DNA from: a virus
Taxonomy: Duplodnaviria > Caudoviricetes
Length of the DNA: 64,000 nt
Strand: one strand, 5' to 3'
IMG/VR virus record: IMGVR_UViG_3300022752_000014
In this document: piece after piece, positions 16,024 through 48,703 of the stretch
Numbering within the stretch: position 1 is the first letter of the stretch
Layout of the letters: every line of letters begins with the position of its first letter
The notes under the pieces: generated by a model
Databases searched by the model: none
Told to the model about the DNA's origin: nothing
Seen by the model: the letters and a program-made list of their open reading frames with translations, nothing else
Position numbers and translations under genes: made by a program

Positions 16024-16069
16024 AACTGTCACAAGGGCACTGGACAAGTGCCCTTTTTTCATATATAGT
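16024..16069 (+). promoter_or_regulatory. terminator-like hairpin that also carries a sigma70-like promoter, class A
   Basis: AAGGGCAC/GTGCCCTT stem followed by a T-run; TGGACA 16041-16046, 17 bp, TATAGT 16064-16069; AACTGTCAC box upstream. Confidence 0.7.
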
Positions 16070-16090: not shown

Positions 16091-16564
16091 ATGAACATCA
16101 AAGCAGTTCTACTTGCAAGTTTGATTGCAGCACCTATTCCTGCTTTTGCTCAACAGACTAACATCTATTCTGTCTGCACAAACTATCAAGAAAACTATAC
16201 GCCTGGATATTATGATAGTTATGGCAACTATGTTTCTGGTCGCGTAAATACAGAACGCTATAATGTTCAGTGCGGAACTGGTACATATTATCGCCCGAAC
16301 GGTGGCAATGTTTATCAATCTCCTGTCGCAGTTCCTATTCAACAACCACAGTATCGCCAACGCATCTGTAATCCTACTGCTGGTGCAGCATTAGGCGCTG
16401 GACTTGCATCTGCACTGACTGGCAATAGTTACAATTACGGTGGAAGTTATCAGCGAAACTATAATCGCAATAGTTCTTCTGGTAGTTGGAGTAATTATGG
16501 CACAAACAGTAATGGATGGACGCTATTTGGTGCTGGTCTGGGTGCATTGCTTTACAGTTGCTAA
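16091..16564 (+). CDS. exported/membrane protein with glycine-zipper-like helices
   Basis: Signal-like N-terminus (APIPAFA-Q); AGAALGAGLASAL and LFGAGLGALL. Confidence 0.7.
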   Translation: MNIKAVLLASLIAAPIPAFAQQTNIYSVCTNYQENYTPGYYDSYGNYVSGRVNTERYNVQCGTGTYYRPNGGNVYQSPVAVPIQQPQYRQRICNPTAGAALGAGLASALTGNSYNYGGSYQRNYNRNSSSGSWSNYGTNSNGWTLFGAGLGALLYSC

Positions 16565-16592
16565 GGGGGGACGCCCAAAGTGGATCTATAGT
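16563..16592 (+). promoter_or_regulatory. G6 element copy 1 (GGATCT variant)
   Basis: Overlaps the TAA of the upstream gene. Confidence 0.8.
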
Positions 16593-16609
16593 ATAAGCAC
16601 AACTCTCAA

Positions 16610-17023
16610 ATGGCAACTCGCTCACGTATCGGTCTTGAACTTTCTGATGGCAGTATTCTCTCTGCCTATCATCACTGGGATGGTTATCCCGAATGGTTGG
16701 GTCGTATTCTGACCACTCACTACAACACTAAATCTCTTGTCGAAGAACTGATTGACGGCGGAGATATGTCCTGTGCCTGGACAGATGAGCGTTGGGATGA
16801 TACTGGCGTGAAGGGAGTTTATGGTCCTCAATACTACTCCCAGCGTGGTGATGATTGCCCTCCTCGCCTTGATGCTGACCTCTGTGAGTATCTTCTTCCT
16901 GCTAATGGTGAAGAGTATCACTACCTCTTCCGCAATGGTGAATGGGTGTGCTATAATATGAATACTTTTGAGGAAAAACTTCCCGAAGTTGTTGAAATCC
17001 CTAACGGAGCACTTGCAGTATGA
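16610..17023 (+). CDS. cyanophage-type hypothetical protein
   Basis: MATRSRIG...YHHWDGYPEWLG; first gene after copy 1. Confidence 0.75.
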   Translation: MATRSRIGLELSDGSILSAYHHWDGYPEWLGRILTTHYNTKSLVEELIDGGDMSCAWTDERWDDTGVKGVYGPQYYSQRGDDCPPRLDADLCEYLLPANGEEYHYLFRNGEWVCYNMNTFEEKLPEVVEIPNGALAV

Positions 17024-18498
17024 GTAAGAAGTACGTCATCACTTTCGCTCTTGGTTTCATTGCTATGATTGGATGGAATGTATTTTTAATCCAACGCGAT
17101 GATGCAATGTATAAAGCATACTATCGCCAGCAAGCAATAGATAATCTTAAGCATCGCCCAAGTCTTGAGATTCGGTGATATACTTTCTTATCATCTCAGC
17201 AGCATTTGGATGGTTTTTTACTGTCCTATTCTCCAAACACTTTGATTACCTAGACGAAAATGACACCAAAACGCATCAAAGACCTCATCAAAAAAGCAGA
17301 GATGAATAAAGCAGCAGAAGAGTTTTGGAAGGAAATTGAAGCAGAAGCAGCAAAGTATGAGGTTCCTGTTGATTATTATCTTGCGGAATTTTATTGATGA
17401 CTTTTCTGTTTGGAATGGGACTGGGTTCTCTACTCACAATCGGTGCAGCATTTATCTTTGCTGCTGACCGAAATATCCTTGACGAAGGCGACGAAAACTA
17501 TTACAATTAAGGAGTAATTTACACAAAACAATGACACAGAAGTTTCTTTACATCGTTCAGCACTATGTTCCTTTTCCTGCTAGTGAATATGGTGGAGTTT
17601 GGAATGTAATTGCCGAAGATGATGATGAGTGTTTTGATCTCATCTCTGCCGAAGATAATGGTGGTTTCTATGAGAAATACTATAGTGATCTCAAAGAGAA
17701 CATCTTGAACTCGCAAACATTTGCACTTGCTGAAGATGTAGATTCTAGTGTTGTTGAAAGTTTTACTACTTGATGTTAAATGAATTTCCTCACAAATCTC
17801 CAAAAGGTTATTCTTACGAATTTACCGAGTTCAAGCGAAACGTTGTCGCCATTTGGTTACGTCATTCTGCTGTCTATGACTATAATAATGGTAAATCTGT
17901 TCGGACCATTTGGGGGTTCTTCAACACCAAAACCAAAAAATATCATTTACCCGTCAACAGTTCAACAGTTGGTGGTGTAGTAAATATAAAGGATACGCGG
18001 AATTATACCGCGATGCCTATCAAACAAACACCTTTAGAAAGTGCATTTGTATGACCTACGAACCCAAATTCAATGACTATGTGAAGTGGAATAACGGAAA
18101 AGGTGTTGAGGGTTGGGTTTATTTCAAAGATAAAGAGTATATTACAATTGAAGAATTGGTGCGTCCTAAAGATAAGACTAACTATAAAGCGTGTTCAATA
18201 CATCGGAATGACCGATTACTTGTGGTTTGTTACAAAGAACAGTGGTGTGAGTTAGAGTATGTCAAAACCAGAGAATCGGTGTATGAAGAAGAAAAAGAGC
18301 AAAACACTTTGGCGCTGGTGGGCGAAAGCACTTGGGGAGAAGGCAACGAAAAATGACAGAGAAGCAGACTACATTGCTGGTGTACGGACTTTTATATTCT
18401 TCACTTATCTCATTACTAATCTTTTTATTTGTGCGGGGGTCATAAGGCACTGGAATGATGTCCCAACAATAAATAATGAAAAAGTGTTGGTAAAATGA
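17020..18498 (+). other. small hypothetical genes (17020-17178, several micro-ORFs to ~17510, 17531-17773, 17770-18054, ~18051-18356, ORF ending 18498)
   Basis: Co-oriented, mostly coupled ORFs. Confidence 0.6.
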
Positions 18499-18686
18499 AG
18501 ACGTTTCAGCAATTTATGGAACAAGTTCCTGCAATGGAACCTAACTTTTATAGTCAGCAAGTTGCAAGACGCCAAGCAACACAAAAGACTGCACATATTA
18601 AGCACGTTCATTCCGAATTAGGTGCTGAAGCAAGAGCACAACAAGCAGCGAAACGTGCTAATATGAGAGCAATTCTGTCCCGTTGA
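18495..18686 (+). CDS. putative internal head protein with a T4 IP-like N-terminus
   Basis: MKTFQQFMEQ; ATAAATA at 18469-18475. Confidence 0.6.
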   Translation: MKTFQQFMEQVPAMEPNFYSQQVARRQATQKTAHIKHVHSELGAEARAQQAAKRANMRAILSR

Positions 18687-18690
18687 TTCA

Positions 18691-18720
18691 AAGGGGGGAC
18701 GCCCAAAGTGGACCTATAGT
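18691..18720 (+). promoter_or_regulatory. G6 element copy 2
   Basis: Exact consensus, 4 bp after the TGA. Confidence 0.8.
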
Positions 18721-18738
18721 GTAAGCAACAAACGAATT

Positions 18739-18876
18739 ATGGATTCCTTTGATGATCTGCAAATTGAAGAGTTTTCTTCTTTTGACTTTGTTGAAGAGAT
18801 GAATGAACCTCTCTTTGAAGAAGAGGATAATGACAAATCCTTCAACGCTTTCCTTAACTCTAACTTTGATTTTTGA
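18739..18876 (+). CDS. very acidic, Phe-rich microprotein (45 aa)
   Basis: Read by hand: MDSFDDLQIEEFSSFDFVEEMNEPLFEEEDNDKSFNAFLNSNFDF. Confidence 0.6.
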   Translation: MDSFDDLQIEEFSSFDFVEEMNEPLFEEEDNDKSFNAFLNSNFDF

Positions 18877-18881
18877 TTAGA

Positions 18882-19082
18882 ATGTCTGAAACTATTGCCA
18901 ACGTTCTGCCTCACCTGAAAGAACTTCAACAAGATTGGCGGCGACAAGATTTTGTATTCACAAAGGATCAACAACAACAATACGATCTGTTGATTGCAAC
19001 TCGCCGCGAACGTGTGCGCCAACTGTATGAAGAAGGTCGCGTCTTCAAAGGTTCATATAAAGCAAAGGAAGAGGAGTTCTAA
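18882..19082 (+). CDS. hypothetical protein
   Basis: ATG 18882 inside the ORF-track 18873 ORF. Confidence 0.65.
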   Translation: MSETIANVLPHLKELQQDWRRQDFVFTKDQQQQYDLLIATRRERVRQLYEEGRVFKGSYKAKEEEF

Positions 19083-19108
19083 ATACTAAAAAGAGTGTTT
19101 AGATAACG

Positions 19109-19708
19109 ATGAAGACGTTTCAGGAGTTTATGTCTCTTTGTGAAGATGTTCAGACGGGAGAAGACAAATCCAAAGCACTTGGATTTGCTGCAACCATCAA
19201 AACTGCACAAAAAGGTGGAAGAATCCGCCCTGAACGTAAAAAGACAACTCCTGAAATACGTCGCGTAAAAGCAGTTGGTGGTGGAAAGACCGAACCAGTT
19301 GAGTATAAACCAAGAAAAGACATTGGAACTGAACGTAAAGCAGAAACAAGAGTCCAGCAACCAGAACAAGAACGTGGAAGTGCAAGAGAAGCACAATTAG
19401 CAGCAGCAAAAGAAGAAAGAAGGAAAGCAGCACAAGCAAGAATTGCTGCAAAGAAAGCAGGTGCAAAACCTGAAGCAGCAAAACCAAAAGCAAAAGAAGC
19501 AGAAAAGGCAGCAACAAAATTACTGTCTAAAAAGAAACCAGAAACAAAACCAGCAGCAGGATACAAACCACCCAAAGCATCGGGACTTTCTACAAAAGAA
19601 AGAAAAGCACTCCTCAAGAAAGGTGAAAGAACTTTGCGTGATATTGTTCTCTCATCAACAGGTAAAAAGTCCGAAAAGGAACTTAAGCACAAATATACCT
19701 CCAAGTAA
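19109..19708 (+). CDS. Lys/Ala-rich putative internal head / DNA-binding protein
   Basis: MKTFQEFMSLCE N-terminus; histone-like K/A/P tract; CTAAATA at 19079-19085. Confidence 0.65.
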   Translation: MKTFQEFMSLCEDVQTGEDKSKALGFAATIKTAQKGGRIRPERKKTTPEIRRVKAVGGGKTEPVEYKPRKDIGTERKAETRVQQPEQERGSAREAQLAAAKEERRKAAQARIAAKKAGAKPEAAKPKAKEAEKAATKLLSKKKPETKPAAGYKPPKASGLSTKERKALLKKGERTLRDIVLSSTGKKSEKELKHKYTSK

Positions 19709-19710
19709 TT

Positions 19711-19740
19711 AAGGGGGGACGCGCAAAGTGGACCTATAAT
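19711..19740 (+). promoter_or_regulatory. G6 element copy 3 (GCGC, TATAAT variant)
   Basis: 2 bp after the TAA. Confidence 0.8.
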
Positions 19741-19780
19741 AGATACGCCACTAGACCCTTCTAGAATCGCCTACAACATC

Positions 19781-19975
19781 ATGGAAACAGTGACTATAGG
19801 GGTTGATACCCTGAAACGTATAATTCGTGACCTTGAGAGTGCAGTGAGTGTGTGTCACAATGTTGATTCATCTCAAGGTGCAGATTCCGAAAAAACGTAT
19901 CCTTATGCGACAGGATACTCGCGTGCTGCGATGACCTCTGCTATAATGGATCTTAACAACCTGATTGCCAAGTGA
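19781..19975 (+). CDS. hypothetical protein
   Basis: First ORF after copy 3; GTGA overlap with the helicase. Confidence 0.65.
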   Translation: METVTIGVDTLKRIIRDLESAVSVCHNVDSSQGADSEKTYPYATGYSRAAMTSAIMDLNNLIAK

Positions 19976-21147
19976 TTACTCTTCGTCCTCATCAAATCCG
20001 TGCTGTTGCTGCTATGCAAAAGCACAATAAAGGTCAGGTCATTGTGCCTACTGGTGGTGGTAAAACGCTGAAGATGATCTATGATACGATGCGTCAGTTT
20101 CAGTCTGAAACTCCGCAGACTGTTGTAGTTGTTGCTCCGCGTATTCTGCTTGCGGAGCAGTTGTCTTCTGAGTTTCTGGAGCATATCACTACTGCTGCTG
20201 TGTTTCATATTCACAGCGGAGAGACGCATCATGAAAGTTCTACTCGTCCTGCTGAGATTTGTGCGTGGGTTGAGAACAACAACTCTCGCCACAAGTTGAT
20301 CTTCACTACCTACAACTCTTTGCAGCGCATTGTTGATGCTGAGATTGATGTGGATACGATCTACTTTGATGAGGCACATAACAGCGTTCAGCGTCACTTT
20401 TTTCCTGCAACTGAGCACTTCAGTGCTAATGCTACCCGTTGCTACTTCTTTACTGCAACCAGGAAAACATCACTCACTCCTTCTAAACCAGGAATGAATG
20501 ATCGTGAGGTCTATGGTGATATTATTTGCCGCGTATCTGCTCCTGAACTTGTTGATGGAGGATACATTATTGCTCCTAAAATTGTAGCAAAGAAGTTTGA
20601 GGTTCTTGCTCCAAAACAGGTAACTGCTGAGTGTGACAGTAGCAATCTGATGGAAACTCTGGAGGATATTGACTGCAAAAAGATTCTGGTTTGTGTTAAG
20701 TCTGCGAAGCAACTTATCAACCTGATGTCTCATACTGACTGTGCTGCTCAACTAAATCAGCGTGGTTATTCTTATCTCTACATCACCTCAAAAACGGGAG
20801 CGATTATTGATGGTAAGAAGGTAAATCGTGAGGTATTTTTTGACACGCTCAACTCTTGGGGTCGTGACCCTAACAAGAAGTTTGTTTGCTTCCATCGCTC
20901 TATTTTGAGTGAAGGAATTAACGTAAGCGAACTAGAGGCGGTCGTCTTTCTTCGCAATATGAATGTAATCGAAATGACGCAAACTATCGGTCGCGTCCTT
21001 CGCCTCGGTGGCAAAGAGAAGGTTTTCGGTCTCTGTGTTGTACCCGTATATTCCAAAGTTGGAGTATCTACAGAGCGAGCACTTCAGCGAGTTGTTGATA
21101 CTGTGTTTGAGAAGGGTGAGATGCTTGATAGTGTTGTTCGTCGCTAA
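19972..21147 (+). CDS. superfamily 2 DEAH helicase (ResIII-like)
   Basis: PTGGGKT, YFDEAH, TAT, LSEGINV, QTIGRVLR. Confidence 0.9.
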   Translation: MITLRPHQIRAVAAMQKHNKGQVIVPTGGGKTLKMIYDTMRQFQSETPQTVVVVAPRILLAEQLSSEFLEHITTAAVFHIHSGETHHESSTRPAEICAWVENNNSRHKLIFTTYNSLQRIVDAEIDVDTIYFDEAHNSVQRHFFPATEHFSANATRCYFFTATRKTSLTPSKPGMNDREVYGDIICRVSAPELVDGGYIIAPKIVAKKFEVLAPKQVTAECDSSNLMETLEDIDCKKILVCVKSAKQLINLMSHTDCAAQLNQRGYSYLYITSKTGAIIDGKKVNREVFFDTLNSWGRDPNKKFVCFHRSILSEGINVSELEAVVFLRNMNVIEMTQTIGRVLRLGGKEKVFGLCVVPVYSKVGVSTERALQRVVDTVFEKGEMLDSVVRR

Positions 21148-21172
21148 ATAATCCAAGAGTTGCTGTAAAGAA

Positions 21173-21586
21173 ATGGACATTTTTGAAGATTTGAAACATT
21201 TTCCTTTTGATGAAAATTATGAAATTCTGTCGGACTGGTGTTCTGGTAAGCGCAATAGATTTTATGGGTTAAAGCACACTGAAGAATCAAAACAAGTTAT
21301 GAGCAAATCAATTAAAGAGCAATTTGCTAACGGCAGGGTGACTCACAATAAAGGAAAATATGCTCCAGATGATACTGTTGGATATAGTGCTCTTTATATG
21401 AGAGAGTATAGGGAAGGAAAGAAAAGAGTTTCAAAAGATAGACGATATATTACTCCCGATGGTAAAACAATTACAGTTGAAGATGTAAAAAAATACTGCA
21501 AAGAGAATGGATTAACCTATCAAAGTATGTTAAAGTTGCACAGAGGAATACTCAATCAACATAAAGGATACAGGAAAGCGCGGTGA
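21173..21586 (+). CDS. NUMOD3-type DNA-binding protein (homing-endonuclease remnant)
   Basis: FYGLKHTEESKQVMS...THNKGK; YITPDGKTITV...YCKENGL; no recognisable GIY-YIG or HNH domain. Confidence 0.7.
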   Translation: MDIFEDLKHFPFDENYEILSDWCSGKRNRFYGLKHTEESKQVMSKSIKEQFANGRVTHNKGKYAPDDTVGYSALYMREYREGKKRVSKDRRYITPDGKTITVEDVKKYCKENGLTYQSMLKLHRGILNQHKGYRKAR

Positions 21587-21590
21587 ACAA

Positions 21591-21773
21591 ATGAAAGAGG
21601 GTTTCTTAGTTTCTAATGGACTCTACGCTGCTGTACCTTATGGCAACAAAGGATACATCATTATACACAATGGTCAGCAACTTGAGAAAGTGTGTAGAAC
21701 TGAAGATTCTGCACGAAAGTATATCAATGCTCATCGTAAGGGTAAATCAGTCGCACAACTTCCCGTTGATTAA
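21591..21773 (+). CDS. hypothetical protein
   Basis: Its stop abuts copy 4. Confidence 0.65.
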   Translation: MKEGFLVSNGLYAAVPYGNKGYIIIHNGQQLEKVCRTEDSARKYINAHRKGKSVAQLPVD

Positions 21774-21803
21774 AAGGGGGGACGTGCAAAGTGGACCTAT
21801 AGT
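21774..21803 (+). promoter_or_regulatory. G6 element copy 4 (GTGC variant)
   Basis: Directly after the TAA. Confidence 0.8.
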
Positions 21804-21817
21804 ATCACCAAAAAATT

Positions 21818-22705
21818 ATGTTTGTCACTGAGGATCTCAAATCTGCTGTGAATGAGGCAGAGTCATTTCAACAAGAGAGCAGTTATTCTGACTTGATTTG
21901 TCTCAAATCCACGAAAGGTGGTGTTGGTCTTAACACCTTTGAGACTGCACTTGTCAATGCCAAAGAGTATATGAGCGATGAGGATGTTACGTTCTATCGT
22001 AACTTTTATCGCAACTATTCTTCTCCTCTTTGTGTTCTTCCTAAAGGGCACAGTGGCAAATGTTCTTGTTCCTATGGTAAGTTCTTTGTTGATAAGTTTG
22101 CAAAGAAAATTAAGGATTGTGATACTACTCCTGGAGATGATGACATTCTCTACAAAAATCGAGCACGTCGTATCTTTCCCATTCAGGTTAATAAGAATCA
22201 ATACACAGTTCTGAACGCAAAATATACTTGGAAGGCAAAAAATATCAAAATGAAAGCAGCAATCCCCGCTGAGTTTGGTGGCACTAATTTCACCATTGCC
22301 ACCGCACATTTTGACTTTGCTGCTATTTTGCTGCTGCAAAAAGGAATTGAGCATAAACTATCCGAAGATGTGGAGTTTAAGTTGCTTGAACGTGCTCAAG
22401 ACATTGTTGATGAGTTTGTAGCACAGGGCATCGACATTGTTGATGAGAATGGACAACTTTGTTGCCCTGTGTTAGGATGTACTATTGAACCAGAATGGTA
22501 CGAGACTGATGATAAGAACCCAAATCAAGTTCAGTTTGGTCACGTCCAACCGATTCGCTCCGATAAGTATATGACCCGTGGTGGTAATGTTGTACCTATC
22601 ACCCGCAACGGTAACCTAATGCAATCCGATAAATCTATTCAGCAAACTTATGCAGACCAAGAAGCAGCAGTCGAACGTCGTAAAGCAAGGAGATTGCCTT
22701 GTTGA
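21818..22705 (+). CDS. putative type II restriction endonuclease, HNH-type (BstXI-like)
   Basis: LCVLPKGHSGKC, TPGDDDILYKNRARR, C-terminal CCPVLG...FGHVQP...GNVVPITRNGNLMQ; overlaps a methyltransferase gene. Confidence 0.55.
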   Translation: MFVTEDLKSAVNEAESFQQESSYSDLICLKSTKGGVGLNTFETALVNAKEYMSDEDVTFYRNFYRNYSSPLCVLPKGHSGKCSCSYGKFFVDKFAKKIKDCDTTPGDDDILYKNRARRIFPIQVNKNQYTVLNAKYTWKAKNIKMKAAIPAEFGGTNFTIATAHFDFAAILLLQKGIEHKLSEDVEFKLLERAQDIVDEFVAQGIDIVDENGQLCCPVLGCTIEPEWYETDDKNPNQVQFGHVQPIRSDKYMTRGGNVVPITRNGNLMQSDKSIQQTYADQEAAVERRKARRLPC

Positions 22706-23591
22706 GTTAGAAAAATTAGAAGATAAATCAGTCGATCTCATTCTCATTGATCCGCCATACAACATCGGCAAAGATGAATGGGACGACTTTGGAATCACCA
22801 AAAAAGGTTATCAACCAAAACCCTATACTGGTGAATCTTACTATGACTGGATGCAAGAAGTATTTGTTGCACTAAGTCGCGTTATGAAAGATTCAGGTTC
22901 ATTCTGGTTCTTTCACAATGACTTTAGAATGATGGCAGAATTGGATCGACGTATTCAATCTACCACGGACTTTGAGTATAAAAATTTTATTGTCTGGAAT
23001 AAGTTATTTCCTGGATGCAAACAAGAGGGATTCTTGAATGGTTTTGTGCAAGTTGAAGGTCTAAACAATTTCCAGAAAATGGCAGAGTATATGTTATTCT
23101 ATACTCGCAAAGATATTCATCTTAAGTTAAAAGAACGACGGATGGAGTTAGGTGTTAAATCATCTGATATTAGCAAGGAGATATTGAGTAAAACTGGTGG
23201 ATTGACTGGTTGGTACAGTAACATTGAAACTGGTAAAAATTACCCCACAGAGGAGACAATTATTCCAATTACCAAATATTTGGGATTCACAATGAACGAT
23301 CTTGTGCCAAAGTTCTATAATCAGAAGAACAGTCATTCTATTTGGCAATATGATTTTGATTCCAAAAAGATGGGTCATTTAACACCAAAACCAATCGAAT
23401 TGCTTAAAAACATTATTGTTCATTGCACTGATCCTGGTGATTTAGTTTTAGATTGTTTTGGTGGGAGTGGTAGCACTGCTGTTGCATGTATTGAAACTGA
23501 TCGTAACTATCTGTTGATCGAAAAAGAACAAAAATATGTTGAGATTGCGGAAGATAGGATAGCACGGTATTCTGCACGATTGCCTATCTGA
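22650..23591 (+). CDS. beta-class N4-C/N6-A DNA methyltransferase with an internal XRE-like HTH
   Basis: GDCL...DLILIDPPYN, HLTPKPIELL, LDCFGGSGSTA; insert LKERRMELGVKSSDIS...YSNIETGKNYP. Confidence 0.92.
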   Translation: MQTKKQQSNVVKQGDCLVELEKLEDKSVDLILIDPPYNIGKDEWDDFGITKKGYQPKPYTGESYYDWMQEVFVALSRVMKDSGSFWFFHNDFRMMAELDRRIQSTTDFEYKNFIVWNKLFPGCKQEGFLNGFVQVEGLNNFQKMAEYMLFYTRKDIHLKLKERRMELGVKSSDISKEILSKTGGLTGWYSNIETGKNYPTEETIIPITKYLGFTMNDLVPKFYNQKNSHSIWQYDFDSKKMGHLTPKPIELLKNIIVHCTDPGDLVLDCFGGSGSTAVACIETDRNYLLIEKEQKYVEIAEDRIARYSARLPI

Positions 23592-23595
23592 TTGA

Positions 23596-23625
23596 AAGGG
23601 GGGACGCCCAAAGTGGACCTATAGT
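23596..23625 (+). promoter_or_regulatory. G6 element copy 5
   Basis: Exact consensus; ATG follows immediately. Confidence 0.8.
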
Positions 23626-24516
23626 ATGAAGAACACTCATCTCGAACATCCTGAAGATTCTATCCTCAGCGGTGACCTTTCTGTGTTAGATTGGTTCACT
23701 GCTGGTGGTGACCTCAGTGTAAAGATTGACGGTGCTCCTGCTGTTGTTTGGGGTACGAATCCTGCAACTGGTAAGTTCTTTGTGGGCACCAAGAGTGTGT
23801 TCAACAAAGTAAAGATCAAGATCAACGAATCACACGAAGACATTGATGCGAACCACCAAGGAAATGTCGCGCAAATCCTTCATTGCTGTCTGGATTCTTT
23901 GCCTCGCATCGCTGGCATTGTGCAAGGTGACTTTATCGGGTTTGGTGGACTTTCGGAATACACTCCCAATACTATCACCTACCAGTTCCCAGAAGTAATC
24001 ACTCAAAGCATCATCATTGCTCCGCATACTTGTTACGTTGCGAAGAATGATCTGCGTGATGCTGTTGCAATCCCCGACTTTTATCTGTGGATTGATACAT
24101 CTCACGTCAAGTTTGTAAAACCTGAAGCATATATCGCTCACGGTCAAGATTCGTTTGCTGATGTCAAAGAAGTCTGCGATTTTGCCCGTCAAATGTCAAC
24201 AATGTGTCAGTTTGTTCAGGGTAAGCAACTTGCCAACCTGAAGAAACAACTTAATGCCAAGATTCGTGAGGGTCTTCCTATCAGCGACACTGACACCTTT
24301 GATTGCGATCCTAACTTGATTCGTCTGTGGTCATTGGTAAAATCAATCAAAGATGATTGTTTGTTCCTGTGTCGCAATTATGGTCCTGCAGCATATCTGA
24401 ACAGCAACAGAATTGATGCGGAAGGTTATGTCCTCACCAATCAGTTTGGTATGATGAAGTTGGTCAATCGTGAGGTATTCTCTCATGCAAACTTCAATCT
24501 AGCAAAGAATTGGTAA
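23626..24516 (+). CDS. cyanophage protein (DUF6267-like) with nucleotidyltransferase/ligase-like motifs
   Basis: MKNTHLEHPED; SVKIDG, VQGDF, AEGYVL, MMKLVN. Confidence 0.6.
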   Translation: MKNTHLEHPEDSILSGDLSVLDWFTAGGDLSVKIDGAPAVVWGTNPATGKFFVGTKSVFNKVKIKINESHEDIDANHQGNVAQILHCCLDSLPRIAGIVQGDFIGFGGLSEYTPNTITYQFPEVITQSIIIAPHTCYVAKNDLRDAVAIPDFYLWIDTSHVKFVKPEAYIAHGQDSFADVKEVCDFARQMSTMCQFVQGKQLANLKKQLNAKIREGLPISDTDTFDCDPNLIRLWSLVKSIKDDCLFLCRNYGPAAYLNSNRIDAEGYVLTNQFGMMKLVNREVFSHANFNLAKNW

Positions 24517-24544
24517 GGGGGGACGCCCAAAGTGGACCTATAGT
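24515..24544 (+). promoter_or_regulatory. G6 element copy 6
   Basis: Overlaps the TAA; ATG follows immediately. Confidence 0.8.
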
Positions 24545-25003
24545 ATGAGCAACACTACCATGCAAGTCCAAGCACAGCAAGTCATTGCAGATTCGGTCCT
24601 TAAGAATACCTATCTGCTGATTGAAGCACTCAAAGACAATTATCGTCAGTATTCTATCCGTTCTCATCAACGTTCTGTAGAGAACTTTGACTTTACTTAT
24701 GATGGATCTCCTTCGGTTCAGTCGCAATATCATCAGCAGAAGATTGATGAACTCAAGTCTGGCAAGTGTGACATTGATTATACCATTGAGTCTGGCAAAA
24801 AGTATCACAAAGTCATCTTTATTGATGGTGGCGGTGGTCGCTCTGCTCACTGCTTCGTTGACAAAAAGACTGGCGAAGTGTATAAGTCGGAATCCTGGAA
24901 GTCTCCTGCCAAAGGTGTACGTTACGACCTGCGATTGATCGCTGATCGTGAATACCTGCTGGAAAATGCTGATTGGTCGGGTGGTTATTTGTACGCAAAG
25001 TGA
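24545..25003 (+). CDS. phage hypothetical protein
   Basis: GKKYHKV...HCFVDKKTGEVYKSESWKSPAKGVRYDL. Confidence 0.75.
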   Translation: MSNTTMQVQAQQVIADSVLKNTYLLIEALKDNYRQYSIRSHQRSVENFDFTYDGSPSVQSQYHQQKIDELKSGKCDIDYTIESGKKYHKVIFIDGGGGRSAHCFVDKKTGEVYKSESWKSPAKGVRYDLRLIADREYLLENADWSGGYLYAK

Positions 25004-25008
25004 TTGAA

Positions 25009-25272
25009 ATGACTTACTCTAACCTCTCCAAGATTCGCCCGAAGTTGAGAACATCGGGCAACATTACTGGTAATTTTGGTAAATCAAAGGTCAAAGCAGG
25101 ATCTACACTCAATGACATTGGTGTAAGTAATGCTGAAGTCATCAAATGTACCACACAAGATGAATACCTGAAGCGACTGTATTATGCTTTTGATAACACT
25201 TCCGAACCTAAACTTCGTCAGTTCATTTATACTGAGATCAAGAAGATTCACATTCAGAGAGGAACTTGGTAA
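25009..25272 (+). CDS. hypothetical protein
   Basis: MTYSNLSKIRPKLRT; ATG 25009. Confidence 0.7.
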   Translation: MTYSNLSKIRPKLRTSGNITGNFGKSKVKAGSTLNDIGVSNAEVIKCTTQDEYLKRLYYAFDNTSEPKLRQFIYTEIKKIHIQRGTW

Positions 25273-25281
25273 GGTGATGCA

Positions 25282-25311
25282 AAGGGGGGACGCCCAAAGT
25301 GGACCTATAGT
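25282..25311 (+). promoter_or_regulatory. G6 element copy 7
   Basis: Exact consensus; ATG follows. Confidence 0.8.
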
Positions 25312-26327
25312 ATGAGCAACACTACGATGGATCAAGTCTTCCACTATCACACCAACTGGAAAGAGGGTAAAGTGAATCAAATGTGGATTCAGCAAGTTAC
25401 ACCCGAATGGCAAGAATGTGACCACAAATACGTTGCCATCGCTCTCAATCCTGAAACTAACAAAAGCATGGTAATGTCTCATCCTCGCAGTCATTATGAT
25501 ACTCTCCAGTGGGTTCGTAAGTTCTGCGGTTCTTTCTGCATCCTGAACTGATTATGAAAAACTATCGTCTGTTGATTGAGTATTGGGTTCCTGATGAAGA
25601 TGAGAACCTATACGAAGAAAAGTTCATTCAATCGCGTTCATCTTGTGGTAAAATTGCTGATGATTACTTAGCACAAGACCGCACAAATCTTATCCGTTCC
25701 GTTGAAGTTACCCCTGTTTGATTATGGCAAATAACAATACTCTCGCACATCTTCGTGATCGTGTGCAACGTTTGATTGAACAACAGGGCGAAGATGCACC
25801 TGCTGCTGCATTTATCTTTACCAACGAAGATGTATTTGTTTGGGATGAAGATGGTGGCAATCAAATACCTGTAGAGCGTGATATTGCGTTCGACATTCTC
25901 AACGAAGTTGAAGACTATGATTATATCTACACGCAAGTGTTTGATCTCATCGAAGAAGAAATCAAGTCTCGCAATCTTAACAACAAATGACTGAGCACAC
26001 TGGTTACACTTTCAATCGCGTTGAGTTCACTGCAAACGAGGAAACTTGCATCCTGAAGTTTCTCAATGAAGCACGAGAATGTGGATACCCAAGTAAGAAC
26101 GAACAATGGTATCCTGTCATCGATTCTATCATTCAAAAGTTTTTCGATTCTAACATTCAAGAAGCACAGGAGTTTCAGACACGATGAAGTACATTGTTGA
26201 TCTATACGTTGGTGGTAAAGTCTTCAAGGAAGAAGTACAAGCAAACTCACCAAAAGATGCACGAGAGACTGCACTTGCTCGCAATCCTACTGCAAAAGTT
26301 GTGAGTGTCAATGTCAGTTTTCGATGA
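25312..26327 (+). other. module of five small genes (25312-25551, 25554-25721, ~25724-25990, 25987-26187, 26184-26327)
   Basis: Co-oriented, closely spaced ORFs; two read by hand. Confidence 0.7.
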
Positions 26328-26331
26328 TTGA

Positions 26332-26361
26332 AAGGGGGGACGCCCAAAGTGGACCTATAGT
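26332..26361 (+). promoter_or_regulatory. G6 element copy 8
   Basis: Exact consensus; ATG follows. Confidence 0.8.
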
Positions 26362-26932
26362 ATGAGAACAACTTTCACCGTCCGTTTTGATTCCAATGCC
26401 CTGGATTCTCCAGAGTACATTGGACCTTTCTACTCCGAAGATGATGCCCAAGACTATTGCGATGCCCGTAACGGTTCTTTAGCACTTTCTGGGATTCCTT
26501 CTTCTGTTGCTTGTTACTCTGTTGTTGACTGATGATGACACAAACCACTCTTACTTTTGAGGAGATTGATGCTCTCCTTAAGTTCATTGAGTTTCACACT
26601 GATTCATTACGAATTGATGAAGAATCTGCGGAGGAATTGAATGAACTTATTGGGTGCGATGTTGATGCACTCTACAATAAACTTTCTGAAATGCAGGATG
26701 AAGTCTAATGCAATTCCAAGTTACCACAATCGAGTTTGATTTTACTGAAGATAATGACATTCTGCGTGGCACAGATGCAGAATGGCAAGAATACCAACAA
26801 ATCGTAATTGATGACACGTTAGCAACAATTTGGGAGGCATGTGATGAAGATGATCTAGTCGAAGAGATTACATGTGCAACTGGTTGGTGTATCAAGTCCA
26901 TCGATTATCGCCATGTTCTTAACACTTTCTAA
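26362..26932 (+). other. module of three small acidic genes (26362-26532, 26532-26708, 26708-26932)
   Basis: TGATG/TAATG overlaps. Confidence 0.7.
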
Positions 26933-26943
26933 TTGATGAAACA

Positions 26944-26973
26944 AAGGGGGGACGCCCAAAGTGGACCTATAGT
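26944..26973 (+). promoter_or_regulatory. G6 element copy 9
   Basis: Exact consensus; ATG follows. Confidence 0.8.
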
Positions 26974-27695
26974 ATGAACACTACTCCTTTCAACTTCCAA
27001 ACCGACATCACTCCTGCACTTCTGGAGTTTATGCTCAATACTGCACCTTTCACTGATTTGAATGATTGTGTAGATTTTGTCTGCAATGTTTTTGACCTCG
27101 ATGCAACTGATGAATTGATTGATTCGATTGCTGATGAGTTCGATGCTTTCTTCGGTAACTGAAATGTTTATTCTGAATGATACAGCAAAGAATGATTCTG
27201 CTGTTCAACTTGCACTGAGAGAGTATGCACAACGTCTTCAAGATGAGGAAGATTATCGTCAGAAAGTTTTATCAGGTGAGGTAATTCCACAACGCACAAC
27301 AGTTCATAACATCTCTGACCGTGACTAAAATTATCTCACTTGTGTTCATTGTAGCACTACTTTTCTCACCGTCGATTCGTTCACTGACTGCCAACACTTT
27401 ACATACTGTTGCTGACATTATCTCACCACAACAATGACATTCTCAACTGACCAAATCTCCTCTCTTAAAGCACTCATTGAGTTTCATGATGATTGGGAAG
27501 AATTAAGCGAACTTCTTGGCACTGATATTGAAACTCTCTACAATGTAGTCTGCTCACTTGATAAAAACAATGATTGAAACTGATTATCACACAATTCCCA
27601 CAAACATCTACGACAAGATTAAAGAACAAGCAGAGGAGTTAGGTATTTCGATTGATTACTTTTTGATGGAGTTTTGTAAGGTTTCCGATTCCTGA
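26974..27695 (+). other. module of microgenes (26974-27162, ~27164-27328, ~27321-27437, 27434-27577, ~27570-27695)
   Basis: Co-oriented short ORFs. Confidence 0.6.
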
Positions 27696-27699
27696 ATCA

Positions 27700-27729
27700 A
27701 AGGGGGGACGCCCAAAGTGGACCTATAGT
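27700..27729 (+). promoter_or_regulatory. G6 element copy 10
   Basis: Exact consensus, 4 bp after a TGA. Confidence 0.8.
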
Positions 27730-27750
27730 ATAAGCACTCAACCAACCATC

Positions 27751-28477
27751 ATGCGTAAGATCGAACAACAAATCATCTCTGCAATTCGTAACAACAAGGA
27801 TCTGAAAGTTGCGAACACTCAAGTCATCAACTATACCAACAGTTCTGATGTTTATCTGCACGGTAATCTGATCGCTCGGATTGGCGAAACCTGGATGGAA
27901 TTGTTCCATGCTGGGTATCAAACAAACACCACAAAAAGTCGTCTTAATGCACTTCTCCAAGCGTTCGGTATGGAAGGTGAGTATATCTTCCAGAAGAACT
28001 TTCAGTGGTTTATTAACTATCAAGGAGCACCGATTCCGTTCTTTAATGGTATGCGTCTGAACTGAATCTATCACTCTTCATTCACACTTACTCAACACAA
28101 ACAAAATGGAACTTACTCAAGACCAATACGATAAACTTCTTGCCAACTATATTGAGCAGATTGTTGATGGTATGGATCTCGACAGTTTGGTACAATTTGC
28201 AAGCGAACAACTTGAACTGAATCTGCGTGAAAGTTGCTCAACTCCAGATGAACTGATCGAAGAGATTTCACTCTTTTATGATGAAGACTATGTGAATGAT
28301 ATGGTGGAAAGTGTACTTAACTGATAAGAGTTTGATACAATGAGAACAACGATTCGCTGGTTTTGTCCTTATTCTCAAGGGTGGAAGTTTCAAGGGTTTA
28401 ATACCTACAATGAAGCAGAAAGAATGGTTGATTTTTATACACGAGCAGGGACGATTGCATCTATTATGACATACTAA
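27751..28477 (+). other. module of three genes (27751-28065, 28106-28324, 28340-28477)
   Basis: Co-oriented ORFs ending at a terminator. Confidence 0.7.
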
Positions 28478-28480
28478 CTC

Positions 28481-28506
28481 AGAGGGGATTACACCCCTCT
28501 TTTTTT
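28481..28506 (+). terminator. rho-independent terminator
   Basis: AGAGGGG-ATTACA-CCCCTCT followed by a T-run. Confidence 0.85.
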
Positions 28507-28729
28507 ATGCTTTTTCGTCAAAATAAGGTTAAAAAGGTATTAAATCAATTAAAAAATGTAATTAAAAATATAAATGAGTGATTTATTTGTTATTGATACG
28601 TATTCTCAATAAGGGTGATAATGCTATGAATTCGTATCAATTAGAGGGCATTAATCGTCTATTAAATGTGCTGAGACCTTGTGATTTAGACCCTTATAAA
28701 TGTGCTGAAGTCTTGTGATCTTTGCGTGC

Positions 28730-28758
28730 ATTGTATCAGCACTCCGCCAAAATGTCAA
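28730..28758 (-). promoter_or_regulatory. leftward sigma70-like promoter
   Basis: - strand TTGACA, 17 bp, TACAAT with extended TGn; no ORF downstream. Confidence 0.7.
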
Positions 28759-28815
28759 GTCCCCCGCTGTCACAAAATCCCCACAATCCCCCCGCATAAA
28801 ATCCACACCCCGCCG

Positions 28816-28863
28816 ATAAATACTCCCCAGGACGTTGACAATAATTCCCAGGTATCTTATAGT
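28816..28863 (+). promoter_or_regulatory. late ATAAATA plus near-consensus sigma70 promoter
   Basis: ATAAATA 28816-28822; TTGACA 28835-28840, 17 bp, TATAGT 28858-28863. Confidence 0.8.
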
Positions 28864-28891
28864 ATCTAAAGAACACCAACGGAGCGTACCT

Positions 28892-29065
28892 ATGTCAGTA
28901 GCGTATCAACAAGCGCAGAAGCAGCGTTATAGAATCACTCTGGATCTATCAGTGTTCGGTGACTTCGACCCCCACCAGATTGACTGGGAGAAGTTATTCA
29001 AACTGGAACCTGCGGAAAAGTGTGAAGCATACGTTGAGGACTTAAGTACACCTGACCGTTGGTGA
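28892..29065 (+). CDS. cyanophage-type hypothetical protein
   Basis: GGAG RBS, MSVAYQQAQKQRYRITLDLSV; the ORF-track TTG start is the promoter -35. Confidence 0.75.
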   Translation: MSVAYQQAQKQRYRITLDLSVFGDFDPHQIDWEKLFKLEPAEKCEAYVEDLSTPDRW

Positions 29066-29098
29066 GTTGGTAACAACGAACGTGCTGTGAGTGAATCA

Positions 29099-29128
29099 AA
29101 GGGGGGACGCTTAAAGTGGACCTATAGT
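29099..29128 (+). promoter_or_regulatory. G6 element copy 11 (GCTT variant)
   Basis: ATG follows immediately. Confidence 0.8.
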
Positions 29129-30179
29129 ATGAACATCAACGACCTCCTCTCCAGCATCGCTCTCACTGAAGAACTTGCGATGGAAAACTATCAACAACGC
29201 AATGGAGTTGTTGATTATCGCCTCGATGGAGTTTGTAATCACTACTTCCCCAAATATACCTGGAGTGGTCTTAATGACGGTGAAGTTTGCCTGACCTGTA
29301 AAGTTTCCAAGACTGTAAAAGGGCAGTTCCGTTATACCTTTCAAGTGGACGGTAAGCGTATCGCAGAGAAGATGATTGTCTCTGAGTTCCTTGCTCTTGG
29401 TGCGCTTCGGTAAGTTATACTTAAGTCTCACACAGTTCTTTACATTTTCCAAACACAAATGACCGTCACTTTCCAAACAAATCTGTCTGACACTGAGTAT
29501 AACGGTTGGACGAATTATGAAACCTGGAATGTTGCTCTCTGGATCAACAATGATGAGGGTTTGTATCGCCTTGCTCAAGAGTGTGGTGATTATCAAACCT
29601 TCTGTGATTACGTTGGTTCAGATGCAGTAACTGGTGATGGGGTTCGTTATAATGACCCCGCTGTAAATGTCGTCCAGATTGATAGTGACGTTTTCGACTA
29701 CTGATTCACACTTAACACTCACACTTTCGTTATCAACAATCATGCGTTACATTCCGTCTTCCCGTTATACTCTGGATGAGATCGCAGAGCAATGTCGTGC
29801 TGCTATCAATCGTCCCGCTCAGTATCACAAACCAGTGGTGATCAATGTTTATGATGAGGTGCGTAAGTTCTATCGCTACAATGACACTTCGAAGTTCTGG
29901 AGTTATGATGCACCACTGATCGCACAGTAAGGTATACAAAGGGGAATGAGATGCGCCCCTATAAAGACACTCACTCAACACACAGTTATTAACACTTAAC
30001 AACACAAAATGTCCAAGTCGATTGCACTTTCTCTGCTTGCTCAAGGTAACAACGGCAATGAGATTCTGTCCATTCTCGATGCACTCGTCGCTGATAATGT
30101 GAGTGGTTTTGATTATATCGAATCGCCCGTGATTGAGCAGGTGATTGGTGTTCCTACACTCAAGGAGATTGCGTTCTAA
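29129..30179 (+). other. last module genes (29129-29413, 29459-29704, ~29741-29930, 30009-30179)
   Basis: Co-oriented ORFs; YNGWTNYETWNVALWINNDEG in 29459; 30009 read by hand. Confidence 0.7.
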
Positions 30180-30189
30180 TGTGATGCTT

Positions 30190-30234
30190 ACTGTGTGCCC
30201 CGTGATTGACATCGTGGGGCAGCAGTGTTATACT
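30190..30234 (+). promoter_or_regulatory. sigma70 promoter with its -35 at a hairpin loop
   Basis: TTGACA 30206-30211, 17 bp, TATACT 30229-30234; stem TGCCCC-GT-GAT/ATC-GT-GGGGCA. Confidence 0.8.
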
Positions 30235-35126: not shown

Positions 35127-38100
35127 ATGACAGAAAAGAGAGTTCAGTTTAGCAACATCGTTCAGAACCAACTTCCTGCGTATGTTAGGGAGGAATTTCC
35201 GTTAATCTCTGAATTTCTATCACAATATTATATTTCACAAGAGTTTCAAGGCGCTCCCGTTGATCTTATTCAAAATATAGATCAATATGTAAAGGTTGAT
35301 GAAATTGCAAATAATTCAAATTCCCTATATCTTTCAACAAGTATCAATGATATTGATACTACAATTGTTGTAGATGTTGGCAAAAATCCAGAAGGGACAC
35401 TAAACTTTCCCGACTCTTATGGACTTCTCCAAATTGGTGATGAGATTATTACATATACTGGAAAAACAACAAATTCATTTACTGGTTGTATAAGAGGGTT
35501 TAGTGGAATTACTTCATATACAACTCAAAATGCTCCTGACCAACTAACTTTTAAATCATCAAAGTCTTCTTCACACAATTCTGGGACTAAAGTTGTAAAT
35601 TTAAGTTCTTTATTCTTAAAGCAATTTTTATCAAAGATAAAATATCAACTTTCTCCAGGATTTGAAGATAGAACTTTATATTCGGGATTGGATCAATCAA
35701 TCTTTTTAAAACAGATTAAAGATTTTTATCAAAGTAAAGGAACTGACGAATCTTTTATTATTTTGTTTAAAGTTTTATATGGAAAAGACGTTAAAATTAT
35801 AAAACCAAAAGAAAATCTGTTTAGACCCTCTGATGCTCAATATAGATTAACTAATGATGTAGTAGTAGAAAGCATTTCTGGAGATCCATCAGATTTAATC
35901 AACCAGACATTACAACAAAATGCATATGGAAATATATCATATGCTCGCAGTCCAATAACTTATATTGAAAAAATAGTTTCTGGTGTTGGTAATACCTATT
36001 ATAAACTAAGTTTAGACTCTGGATACAACAGGGATATTATCGCTAATGGCGCAACCGTAGGAAAATTCACAGTTCATCCACAAACAAAAATAATTGGACC
36101 AGTATCTACTGGGGTTACTGTTTTTGATGTAGATTCTACTGTTGGATTTTCTTCAAGTGGAGAACTCCTAGTAAAATATGGAGATGATAGCACAGGAATA
36201 GTTACATATACTTCAAAAACTTTAACTCAGTTTTTTGGTTGCTCTGGAGTTTCTAAAACTATCCTTGATGGAGCAGCAATTGGTATTAATACATATGCAA
36301 GCGCGTATAAACCAAATGGTTCTCTTGTAAAACTAAGAGTAACCTCTGTTTTAAATTCTACCGAAATCATTGGAGATACTCGTTATCATTCAAAAGATGA
36401 TACTTCCATAATCAGAACTTTAGGTGTTAAGATCGAAGACACCCCTTCAAAAAATTGGTTTTTTAATATTCCAGTTTCATATAAGGTGAAGTCTATTTTT
36501 TCTCTTGGCACAAATGATACTTACAATATAACAACAGATAAAAAGAATGTTTTAAAAATTGGCGATAAAGTTGATGTTATTTCAAGTTCCGGAGTTAAAA
36601 AAACTTCAACTGTCATTGACTTAATCTCTGATACTACATTCACAATAAAGGGTCAAGGATCACTTTCCTTATCTGATACTTATACTATTAAAAAAATAAT
36701 ACTTAAGGTAAATTCCTCTTTTTTCCCAGGTGCATCTACTTTAAATTCAAATGTACAGAATGTATACAAATTAAATCAAAAAACTTTAGTCTCTTCACCA
36801 TCAATTCCCAGTTATTATAATCAATCTTTAAATGCTACTAATAGATTGGTAACAATCTCCGGATCATTCTCAGGCGATACCTTTACCATCACACCAAACT
36901 CAGATCACGGATTTTATACAGGAGATTCTGTTTATTATACTCCTGCTTCTCCCACAAACTCTTTATTTGATGAAGGGATATATTTTATTAAGAGAGTAGA
37001 TTCAAATAAAATTAAACTAGCAAAAAGTAGATCAAATATTTTTAATAATATATTTGTTTCAATTTCTAGTGCAACAACAGTAACTAGTGATAAAATTGAA
37101 CTATATGATTTAAAATCAAAAACTCTTGGTTCTCAAAAAATCCTTAGAGAAATAGATACTCCTATTGAAGATGGAAATGTATATGAAACAAATCCAGGAT
37201 TTACTGGAATTTTAATTAATGGTGTAGAAGTTTTAAATTATAAAGCAAGCGAATCAATTAATTATGGAAAACTAGAAAGAGTAAACGTAATTGCTCCTGG
37301 TTCAAATTATGATATTATTAATCCACCAGTTTTAAGTATATCAGATTCTGTAGGTAGTGGTGCAACTGGTTTTTGTGCAATTAAGGGTTCTCTTCAAGAG
37401 ATTAGAATTATTGATCCTGGATTTGATTACCTAGACACTCCAATAATTAAAATTACTGGTGGCAATGGTGTTGGCGCAAAAGCATATGCCAATATGAAAT
37501 TGATTAGTCATGAATCTGTATTTAATTCGCAAGGAAATGCAGCACTTATTGATATTGGCAGTGCAACATCAACTATTGGATTTACGACATACCATAAATT
37601 TAGAAATGGCGAAAGAGTCATTTATAAAACAGACAGTCAAAGAGGAGTTGGTGGATTATCAACAGATTCATCATACTTTGTTTCAGTAAAAGATAATTTT
37701 ACAGTTAAATTACACAACACTTTGAATGATGCAATATCTGGAATTAATACCGTAGTTTTATCATCGTATGGTATAGGAAATCATAAGTTACAATCATATA
37801 ACCAAAAATCCGTTCTTAAATCAATTAACATTGAGAATCCAGGGTTTGGTTATGAAAATAAAAAAAGAACAACTACACATTTGGGAATTAATACTTCACT
37901 ATCTCAAATTGAAATTGAATCGCATAATTATGAATCAGGAGAAACTATAGTTTATACTACAGATTTTACTCCTATTGGTGGTCTTTCAACAAACACCAAC
38001 TACATCGTAACCAAAGTCAATGACAATGAATTCAAGTTATCTACCGTTGGTGTAGGTAGCACTGATTATGATTTTTACTACAAAACTAAACAGTATGTTG

Positions 38101-47126: not shown

Positions 47127-47146
47127 ATAGATAAAAAACTGCTCAA

Positions 47147-48697: not shown

Positions 48698-48703
48698 AGA
48701 ATT

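Follow-up and report, generated by a model that had tools for sequence, protein, structure and literature searches.

The DNA analyzed here is a stretch of 64,000 nt deposited as IMG/VR virus record IMGVR_UViG_3300022752_000014 and referred to below, at its full length, as the window. It is part of a freshwater T4-like cyanomyovirus, which carries gp6 and gp8 domains and whose nearest isolates are Synechococcus phages. Between positions 16563 and 29128, eleven near-identical copies of a 30-bp element separate groups of small genes, all in the same orientation. A preliminary description of this DNA regarded the region as an accessory island in which the element served both as an expression signal and as a recombination joint, in the manner of an integron. 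These 11 repeats are the freshwater variant of a clade-wide family of elements. In what follows, the element is considered as a signal for early genes, as a site of module turnover and in comparison with known systems.

Layout of the array

A scan of the 64-kb window for the 30-mer, allowing up to two mismatches, returned 11 matches, all on the plus strand, where 100 dinucleotide-preserving shuffles led to an expectation of none. The number of copies, their single orientation, their positions and the spacings between them agreed exactly with the preliminary description. Its claim that no copy lies elsewhere in the window also held, since neither the 5' half (AAGGGGGGACG) nor the 3' half alone was found again in these 64 kb. 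The copies vary mostly at element positions 12-14, which read CCC, CGC, TGC or CTT; apart from these, positions 23 and 29 are each altered once. All of them lie between plus-strand open reading frames (ORFs), and the ORF coordinates bear out both this intergenic placement and the overlap with the upstream TAA stop codon that had been noticed at copy 1 (ORF 16091-16564) and copy 6 (ORF 23626-24516). The upstream stop codon is separated from the element by 0-11 nt at copies 2-10, inside the range of 0-13 bp initially given, but by 33 nt at copy 11. The 30-bp repeat is real, but the conserved unit extends beyond it on both sides. Most copies are preceded by TGAWTSA, a string that provides stops in several frames, and a leader of the form RTRAGCAMC follows. 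The repeated unit reaches about 12 nt into coding sequence (ATGAGCAACACT). Certain relatives use the same 15 nt as an in-frame leader ahead of a second ATG. The N-termini MSNTT or MNTT are common to unrelated element-led proteins, for example those encoded from 24545, 25312 and 26974.

An ATG stands immediately 3' of the element in seven copies and opens the ORF used downstream in six, namely copies 5-9 and 11. Copy 5 (23596-23625) abuts the start codon of the gene for a DUF6267 protein with a KIDG motif (23626-24516), copy 6 (24515-24544) abuts that of the DUF7717 gene (24545-25003) and copy 7 (25282-25311) heads a five-gene module (25312-26327). Copy 8 (26332-26361) abuts the ATG of gene 26362-26532, whose product has an N-terminus, M-x-x-T-F-T-V-R-F, conserved among relatives. 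Copy 9 (26944-26973) abuts that of gene 26974-27162, and copy 11 (29099-29128), with CTT at positions 12-14, that of a mobile single-gene cassette (29129-29413). At copies 1, 2 and 10, the triplet following the element is ATA or GTA and the ATG is found 17-21 nt further on: copy 1 (16563-16592, one mismatch) is followed by ATAAGCACAACTCTCAA and the ATG of a 137-aa gene (16610-17023), copy 2 (18691-18720) by an 18-nt leader beginning with GTAAGCAAC and an ATG at 18739, and copy 10 (27700-27729) by a 21-nt leader and the ATG of a Kyano_Gp96-family gene (27751-28065). Copy 3 (19711-19740), which has CGC at positions 12-14 and a TATAAT end, is followed by the triplet AGA, with the ATG 40 nt on, and heads the module containing the helicase gene (19972-21147). 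At copy 4 (21774-21803, TGC at positions 12-14), the triplet is ATC and the ATG lies 14 nt on. This copy heads a strain-specific module composed of an ORFan (21818-22705) and a DNA methyltransferase gene (22650-23591).

The array as a whole forms a block of small plus-strand early-type genes directly upstream of the baseplate genes. The same layout is found in marine SynMITS9220M01, S-SM2 and Syn9, and the array is therefore the early region conserved throughout the clade rather than a foreign island. Its G+C content (38-44%) is nevertheless above that of the structural block (30-35%). Elements occupy the same gene junctions in many lineages, and the view of an accessory island is not borne out.

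An element family of cyanophages

All lineages that possess the element have in common its 3' core, AAAGTGnnCCTATAGT (AAAGTG-KM-CCTATAGT), which is followed by R-T-R-A-G-C-A. A scan for AAAGTGNNCCTATAGT located the core on at least 120 IMG/VR contigs; among those listed, about 40 carry 3-12 copies each, always on the gene strand. In marine SynMITS9220M01, the sequence ATGTTACTCACCYCT-AAAGTGTCCCTATAGT-ATG is present at the same junctions as in the window, for instance before the DUF6267 and DUF7717 homologues, and the nine plus-strand copies of this 190-kb genome all lie inside an 11-kb early region (38.9-50.0 kb). The core is also encountered in the isolates S-SM2, S-B05, S-B43, RN05-S and RB11-B.

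Position statistics were drawn from 206 unique copies originating from 93 sources and limited to positions that the search pattern does not fix. With +1 denoting the first nucleotide after the core, a purine occupies +1 in 100% of the copies, T occupies +2 in 98%, A occupies +4 in 90%, C occupies +6 in 66% and A occupies +7 in 83%. The triplet starting at +1 is ATG in 63%, GTA in 21% and ATA in 11%; in the non-ATG copies, the first ATG is found at +16 to +22. The purine and the following T are kept in copies with and without a start codon at this triplet.

Two isolates differ from this pattern. The exact core AAAGTGnnCCTATAGT is absent from Syn9 (NC_008296.2), where about four copies of a diverged look-alike (GTGTATTCTATAAGAGTC, GTGTATTCTATAAGAGTCAAAGG) are located 18-20 nt before an ATG and may be diverged homologues of the core. 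The GTGTATTCTATAAGAGTCAAAGG copies lie upstream of the small genes gp63, gp68, gp73 and gp78 (46340-51067 of the record), in the region equivalent to the array. S-SRM01 (MW015081.1), a freshwater phage and the nearest isolate by DUF6267, has another recurring unit at its early junctions between 2900 and 22500, which consists of AACTGGCACA, about 30 nt, TATAAT, 6 nt and GTAAKCA.

A box that differs between genomes

Upstream of the core, the element carries a 14-nt 5' box, which in the window reads AAGGGGGGACGnnn. At least a dozen forms of this box exist among the contigs of the family: AAGGGGGGACGCCC is common to the window and to the related loci L002, L057 and L012, and other forms include AACTCTGGGGCCTTC, TTAAAGTTACTCACCTCC, AACTTGGATCCTCT and TTACTGGGCCCCTG. 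The mean identity of the 14-nt box is 0.88 within a source versus 0.44 between sources; single-linkage clustering of the boxes chained distinct types, and the number of types that it gave was not relied on. The form of the box is uncoupled from the DUF6267 phylogeny. The DUF6267 proteins closest to that of the window (82-84% identity) stand behind other boxes, and those of the other contigs with a G-run box are only 52-58% identical to it. Contigs from a freshwater RNA run (at least 85% identity) have, in loose ends, a box of the TTACTCACC type at the position of copy 2 of the window.

Mixed or hybrid boxes are found inside two single contigs, L066 and L075, and modules can therefore arrive with a foreign element. 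Within a genome, the box could be kept uniform through selection, exerted by a reader particular to that genome, or through gene conversion between the copies. One common box type (L022, L031, L093, L058 and L005) contains CACCTCC, an anti-Shine-Dalgarno sequence, and the type of the window is a G-run resembling a Shine-Dalgarno (SD) sequence; this opposite polarity argues against a shared pairing with 16S rRNA.

The element as an early expression signal

Genes that are led by an element in the window are also led by one in relatives in 150 of 227 cases, versus 36 of 507 for the other genes. The element is inherited with its downstream gene, and the proposal of an expression signal is supported in that sense, as a signal tied to the gene that follows. 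No sigma70 promoter with -35 and -10 boxes and no terminator was called at any of the 11 copies, in which the -35 position reads AGGGGG. No hairpin or inverted repeat was detected either, six copies folded with their flanks giving z values of 0.09 to 1.03 relative to shuffles, in line with the earlier remark that the element has no long stem-loop and no TTGACA. SD sequences are equally missing from the 11 copies, the ATG coming directly after TATAGT or after an A/C-rich leader without GGAG.

For the DUF6267, 26362-, 26974- and 29129- genes, the ATG at +1 is the only possible start codon; the DUF6267 protein begins with MKNTHLEH and the Pfam profile starts at its residue 3. If transcripts began about 7 nt below TATAGT, the attached gene would thus never be served, and since the element is inherited with exactly this gene, a plain -10 promoter is implausible. 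The invariant purine at +1, the T at +2 and the two peaks of ATG spacing, at 0 and at about 15-21 nt, argue for a transcript start at or just before +1.

With a probability of roughly 60%, and judging from sequence comparison, we regard the element as a non-sigma70 early promoter/leader cassette that would give leaderless or short-leader mRNAs, would precede modules of early genes in one clade of T4-like cyanophages (Kyanoviridae) and would also act as passive homology for recombination. The host polymerase, together with a further factor, would read this promoter, and transcription would start at, or no more than 2 nt from, the invariant purine after TATAGT. An ATG at +1 would then result in a leaderless mRNA, and GTA or ATA at the RTR positions in a leader of about 15-21 nt devoid of an SD sequence.

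Several observations weigh against this interpretation. The family consensus of C at +6 and A at +7 fits a -10-type start about 7 nt downstream, whereas a start at +1 needs unconventional recognition. The RNA run analyzed consists of contigs and shows no RNA ends. RNA contigs run across elements (in loose ends), and one long transcript is possible from a sigma70-like promoter, TGGACA-17-TATAGT (16041-16069), which follows a terminator-like hairpin, the two spanning 16033-16069 on the plus strand just upstream of the array; no strong terminator is found before 28481.

Such a transcript and the element-crossing RNA contigs would suit an element acting on RNA, as an intercistronic signal in long early transcripts. 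It could then be the site of a RegA-type translational regulator, or a processing site making a 5' end at the AUG, with ribosomes loading independently of an SD sequence. The exact placement of the ATG at +1 in 63% of the copies is a fixed spacing typical of translation signals, the lack of a -35 box and of any called sigma70 promoter points the same way, and the surroundings of the AUG, no more structured than shuffles (z 0.1 to 1.0), suit SD-independent initiation; RegA is moreover listed in the annotated Syn9 record. However, in 37% of the copies the triplet at +1 is GTA, ATA or one of a few others and the real ATG comes 15-21 nt later; a spacing with two peaks is more readily reconciled with a transcript start than with a ribosome site. 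The +1 purine and the +2 T are kept even where the triplet is no codon, and the genome-specific box, whose forms extend from SD-like G-runs to CACCTCC, has no evident role in RNA. On balance, a role at the RNA level appears rather unlikely, but it is a serious rival.

A bolder form of the promoter hypothesis would treat the element as a two-part promoter for an uncharacterised mode of early transcription that starts at the start codon. The 5' box would be read by a co-evolving specificity factor, phage-encoded or delivered by the virion, so that each lineage would possess a private early-gene code and imported cassettes would be re-addressed by crossovers in the core. This extended scheme is speculative and, taken as a whole, decidedly unlikely.

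An ordinary host sigma70 promoter, with TATAGT as a -10 box, no -35 box and a start at the A about 7 nt downstream, is favoured by several points. TATAGT fits TAnnnT, the consensus CA at +6 and +7 is a usual start dinucleotide placed at the canonical distance, and TATAAT-N6-GTAAKCA occurs at equivalent junctions in S-SRM01 and Syn9. Marine picocyanobacterial promoters, besides, often have no clear -35 box. In most copies, nevertheless, transcripts of this kind would lack the sole start codon of the attached gene (as for DUF6267, 26362-, 26974-, 29129- and homologues), even though that very gene is the one inherited with the element, and an invariant 16-nt core combined with a genome-specific box far exceeds the needs of a -10 hexamer. 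We judge this explanation very unlikely. A promoter for a phage single-subunit RNA polymerase of the T7/SP6 type, starting at the G of TATAG, is scarcely credible: in our own alignment the core matches the SP6 promoter at 10-11 of 14 positions in register (xAxGTGxCxCTATAG) and the implied start, 2 nt before the ATG, fits the near-leaderless layout, but T4-like phages use the host polymerase and no PF00940 polymerase was found in the complete genomes of SynMITS9220M01, S-SM2 and S-SRM01, the P-SSP7 control being detected with E = 2.7e-69.

Sigma70-like promoters are a separate, host-like class of signals beside the element. In addition to the one upstream of the array, a promoter reading TTGACA-17-TATAGT (28835-28863, plus strand) follows a strong terminator-like hairpin (28481-28500), the two together ending the run of elements 1-10, and the promoter scan identified another at 30206-30234. 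The ORF-poor stretch 28481-28863 also contains TTGACA-17-TACAAT on the opposite strand (28758-28730), and these features interrupt the array between elements 10 and 11.

Gene order and module turnover

Gene order was analyzed by placing 48 window genes in 90 related loci, each written as a string of genes and elements. The backbone of this order is kept, and its elements stand at corresponding junctions, in the succession 18739-19708, element, helicase and following genes to 21591-21773, element, DUF6267, element, DUF7717 and following genes, element, 25312 and following genes, element, 26362 and following genes, element, 27751 and following genes. The 149 distinct types of break counted were compared with a null in which 11 of the 47 junctions of the window are element junctions; the counts lack phylogenetic independence and overlook weak homologues of very small ORFs, so that they show direction and not magnitude. 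The left boundary of the break falls at an element junction in 37% (null 23%), the right boundary in 34% (null 23%) and both boundaries in 15% (null 5.5%). Insertions separate 45% of the adjacent gene pairs at element junctions versus 25% elsewhere.

A clean case was provided by locus L002, from which the 1822-bp methylase module is absent. Both breakpoints are inside elements, and at the nucleotide level the junction combines the left flank of copy 4 with the right flank of copy 5, the join being located within the element. The corresponding slot (21773-23626) is in relatives either empty, filled by an unknown module or occupied by the methylase alone, where the window has the ORFan and the methylase. 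In L002, the 25312 gene is also preceded by an additional module of about 1 kb. On its left side, the single-gene cassette 16610-17023, which lies in different element-bounded slots in relatives, borders on 10 different neighbours, and the gene 29129-29413 precedes the 27751 module in seven loci instead of following it. DUF6267 and DUF7717 have exchanged places in L095 and L106, the first of which also has the methylase at another site.

Other observations limit the part played by the element. Neither boundary touches an element junction in 45% of the break types (null 59%), and a module-wise test of residual divergence, aimed at mosaicism at elements, gave a weak result (p ~0.007), with no correlation even within modules. 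Changes free of elements include two insertions in L003, at 17395 and 18050, an exact deletion of a single gene from 26526 to 26708 in a metagenome contig, and the homing-endonuclease-like gene 21173-21586, missing from 41 loci. Among the joints listed from four metagenome runs, most lie at plain gene boundaries. Two apparent signals were discarded: contig breaks at elements are an assembly effect of the repeat, and many joints that seem to go back in the sequence have only about 30 nt on one side, which is one and the same element assigned to a different copy. The methylase module (~21.0-23.5 kb) has a depth of about 1% of that of its neighbours in three runs which, without a bridging contig, does not constitute evidence.

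TGAWTSA, the element and the leader together amount to about 45-55 bp of near-identical DNA per copy, which the general recombination system of the phage could use as homology. Modules would thus be deleted, inserted and permuted at elements more than at other junctions, and the shuffling would be a by-product of repeated sequence instead of a site-specific cassette chemistry. The elements raise module turnover at their sites without monopolising it, apparently via ordinary homologous recombination. The idea of a recombination joint is thereby retained in part: gain, loss and transposition often run from element to element and breaks are enriched there, but close to half of the breaks involve no element. 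The alignment of relatives that the preliminary description had recommended for locating breakpoints leads to a similar balance, with an enrichment at element junctions and clean cases set against a backbone whose order is largely conserved.

Its integron-like array, in which a dedicated recombinase would excise single modules as circles, or duplicate or swap them, at the element, has very slender prospects. Element-bounded modules are indeed present, absent or permuted between relatives, and the mixed boxes of L066 and L075 point to modules arriving with a foreign element. Still, a search for the recombinase that this mechanism calls for revealed no tyrosine (PF00589) or serine recombinase in either of two complete genomes, SynMITS9220M01 and S-SM2, with positive results for P-SSP7 and 12-14 control genomes, and none among the roughly 28 ORFs of the window that were scanned. 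The element has no inverted repeat or hairpin, every cassette possesses its own expression signal, and the conserved backbone, the breaks away from elements and the plain gene boundaries at metagenome joints all run counter to it.

Cargo genes and surroundings of the array

Nucleotide matches among phage isolates were confined to Synechococcus phages, near-identical DNA occurs in freshwater metagenomes from 10 studies, and a scan of metagenome contigs added one locus. The section at 33-56 kb contains the gp6 and gp8 baseplate domains together with an ORF of 3999 aa (35127-47126). This ORF and a 2487-aa ORF (48704-56167) flank the gp8-like gene in the baseplate module. The G+C content is 37-45% in the early-gene half (1-32000) versus 30-36% in the structural and baseplate half (32000-64000). 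Rfam and tRNA scans of the window gave no match.

Among the cargo genes, the helicase announced by the preliminary description is confirmed by ResIII, DEAD and Helicase_C domains. The restriction-modification pair that it proposed is verified for one member only: profile matches establish 22650-23591 as a DNA methyltransferase, and the presumed restriction partner, the 295-aa ORFan product of 21818-22705, has no match in Pfam, PHROGs, NCBIfam, PADLOC or PDB sequences. In relatives the methylase is present without this ORFan, an identical copy of which is found on a contig from run X2 that covers 20923-23624; the ORFan could be a restriction or anti-defence partner. The protein encoded by 23626-24516, previously considered ligase-like, does contain a K-I-D-G motif and belongs to the family DUF6267/phrog_455. 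It has no match among PDB sequences, and its homologues are found in 467 phage records, nearly all from cyanophages.

A 137-aa ORF (21173-21586) located between the helicase gene and 21591-21773 contains a NUMOD3 motif and has weak matches to HNH/homing-endonuclease PHROGs. Its neighbours are directly adjacent in 41 related loci, and it looks like a recent insertion of an endonuclease gene at an element-free junction. The possibility that the elements serve as targets of a homing endonuclease was rejected: these 41 loci still carry elements without the gene, and the two are therefore unrelated.

Implications for early expression

Little is understood of how the early programme of T4-like cyanophages begins, and these phages have neither MotA nor AsiA. 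To our knowledge, no reader has been reported for their early non-host-like element. The window and more than 90 related contigs sharply define one early element by an invariant 16-nt core, an invariant purine at the usual site of the start codon and a box that each genome keeps uniform but that varies from one genome to another and departs from gene phylogeny. This combination predicts a specific trans-acting reader as well as leaderless translation. Both predictions are amenable to experiment in the culturable phages SynMITS9220M01, S-SM2 and S-B05.

Comparison with known systems

Integrons resemble the array in that their gene cassettes all follow one direction, with a short element recurring between them. 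They differ from it by their integrase, for which no counterpart was found in SynMITS9220M01, S-SM2 or the scanned ORFs of the window, and by their folded attC-like imperfect inverted repeats, which the window element does not have. Integron cassettes are, moreover, promoterless and depend on one Pc promoter, whereas the cassettes of the window each carry an expression signal.

A probable relative is the non-host-like element that Doron et al. reportedly found in 2016 before early genes of Syn9 and P-TIM40, and that is said to be conserved and abundant in T4-like cyanophages, with host-like promoters serving the middle genes. The window likewise contains two classes of signals side by side, the element and sigma70-like promoters. 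Judged by this description, our element probably belongs to the same non-host-like early class, an assignment that stops short of identity. Syn9, one of the phages concerned, has only the diverged look-alike in place of the exact core. The motif of the Doron et al. element is not given in the citing papers that were searched. We know of no previous description of the genome-specific 5' box or of the abutting ATG, and the literature searched contained no account of a two-part build with such a box, of an abutting start codon or of cassette behaviour in cyanophages.

T4 middle promoters, which have a MotA box at -30 and a -10 box and depend on sigma appropriation by AsiA and MotA, also combine a -10-like hexamer with a phage-specific upstream box that replaces the -35. 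By analogy, they are a possible model for a phage factor reading the genome-specific 5' box. They differ in that the start-codon spacing of the window element rules out the usual start site, and T4-like cyanophages are reported to be without motA and asiA (PMC5780444, citing Doron 2016 and Thompson 2016).

A further parallel is offered by the promoter-early stem-loops (PeSLs) described in the T4-like phages RB49/phi1, PST/T4 and nt-1/KVP40 (Arbiol et al. 2010, PMC2839356; Comeau et al. 2014, PMC4122927). PeSLs are also short, repeated, codirectional intergenic units of the hyperplastic early region of a T4-like phage and end at the start codon of the gene that they head. The ends of indels, replacements and displacements between relatives often fall in the PeSL repeats, pointing to homologous recombination between copies; for the window element, breaks are enriched at its junctions but 45% of them lie elsewhere. 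PeSLs possess a terminator-like stem-loop, a sigma70 -35/-10 pair with a spacing of about 17 nt and an SD sequence, all of which the window element lacks; the latter directly abuts the start codon and is built of two parts, a clade-wide core and a genome-specific box. Shuffling of the PeSL type was judged unlikely in cyanophage S-PM2 (Puxty et al. 2015, PMC4503421). By analogy, the window element may be considered to work like a PeSL, as portable homology, though it fails three defining features of PeSL sequences. Promoter-bounded module shuffling of this kind would then extend to cyanophage early regions, where it would help to explain the turnover of small host-takeover and anti-defence genes.

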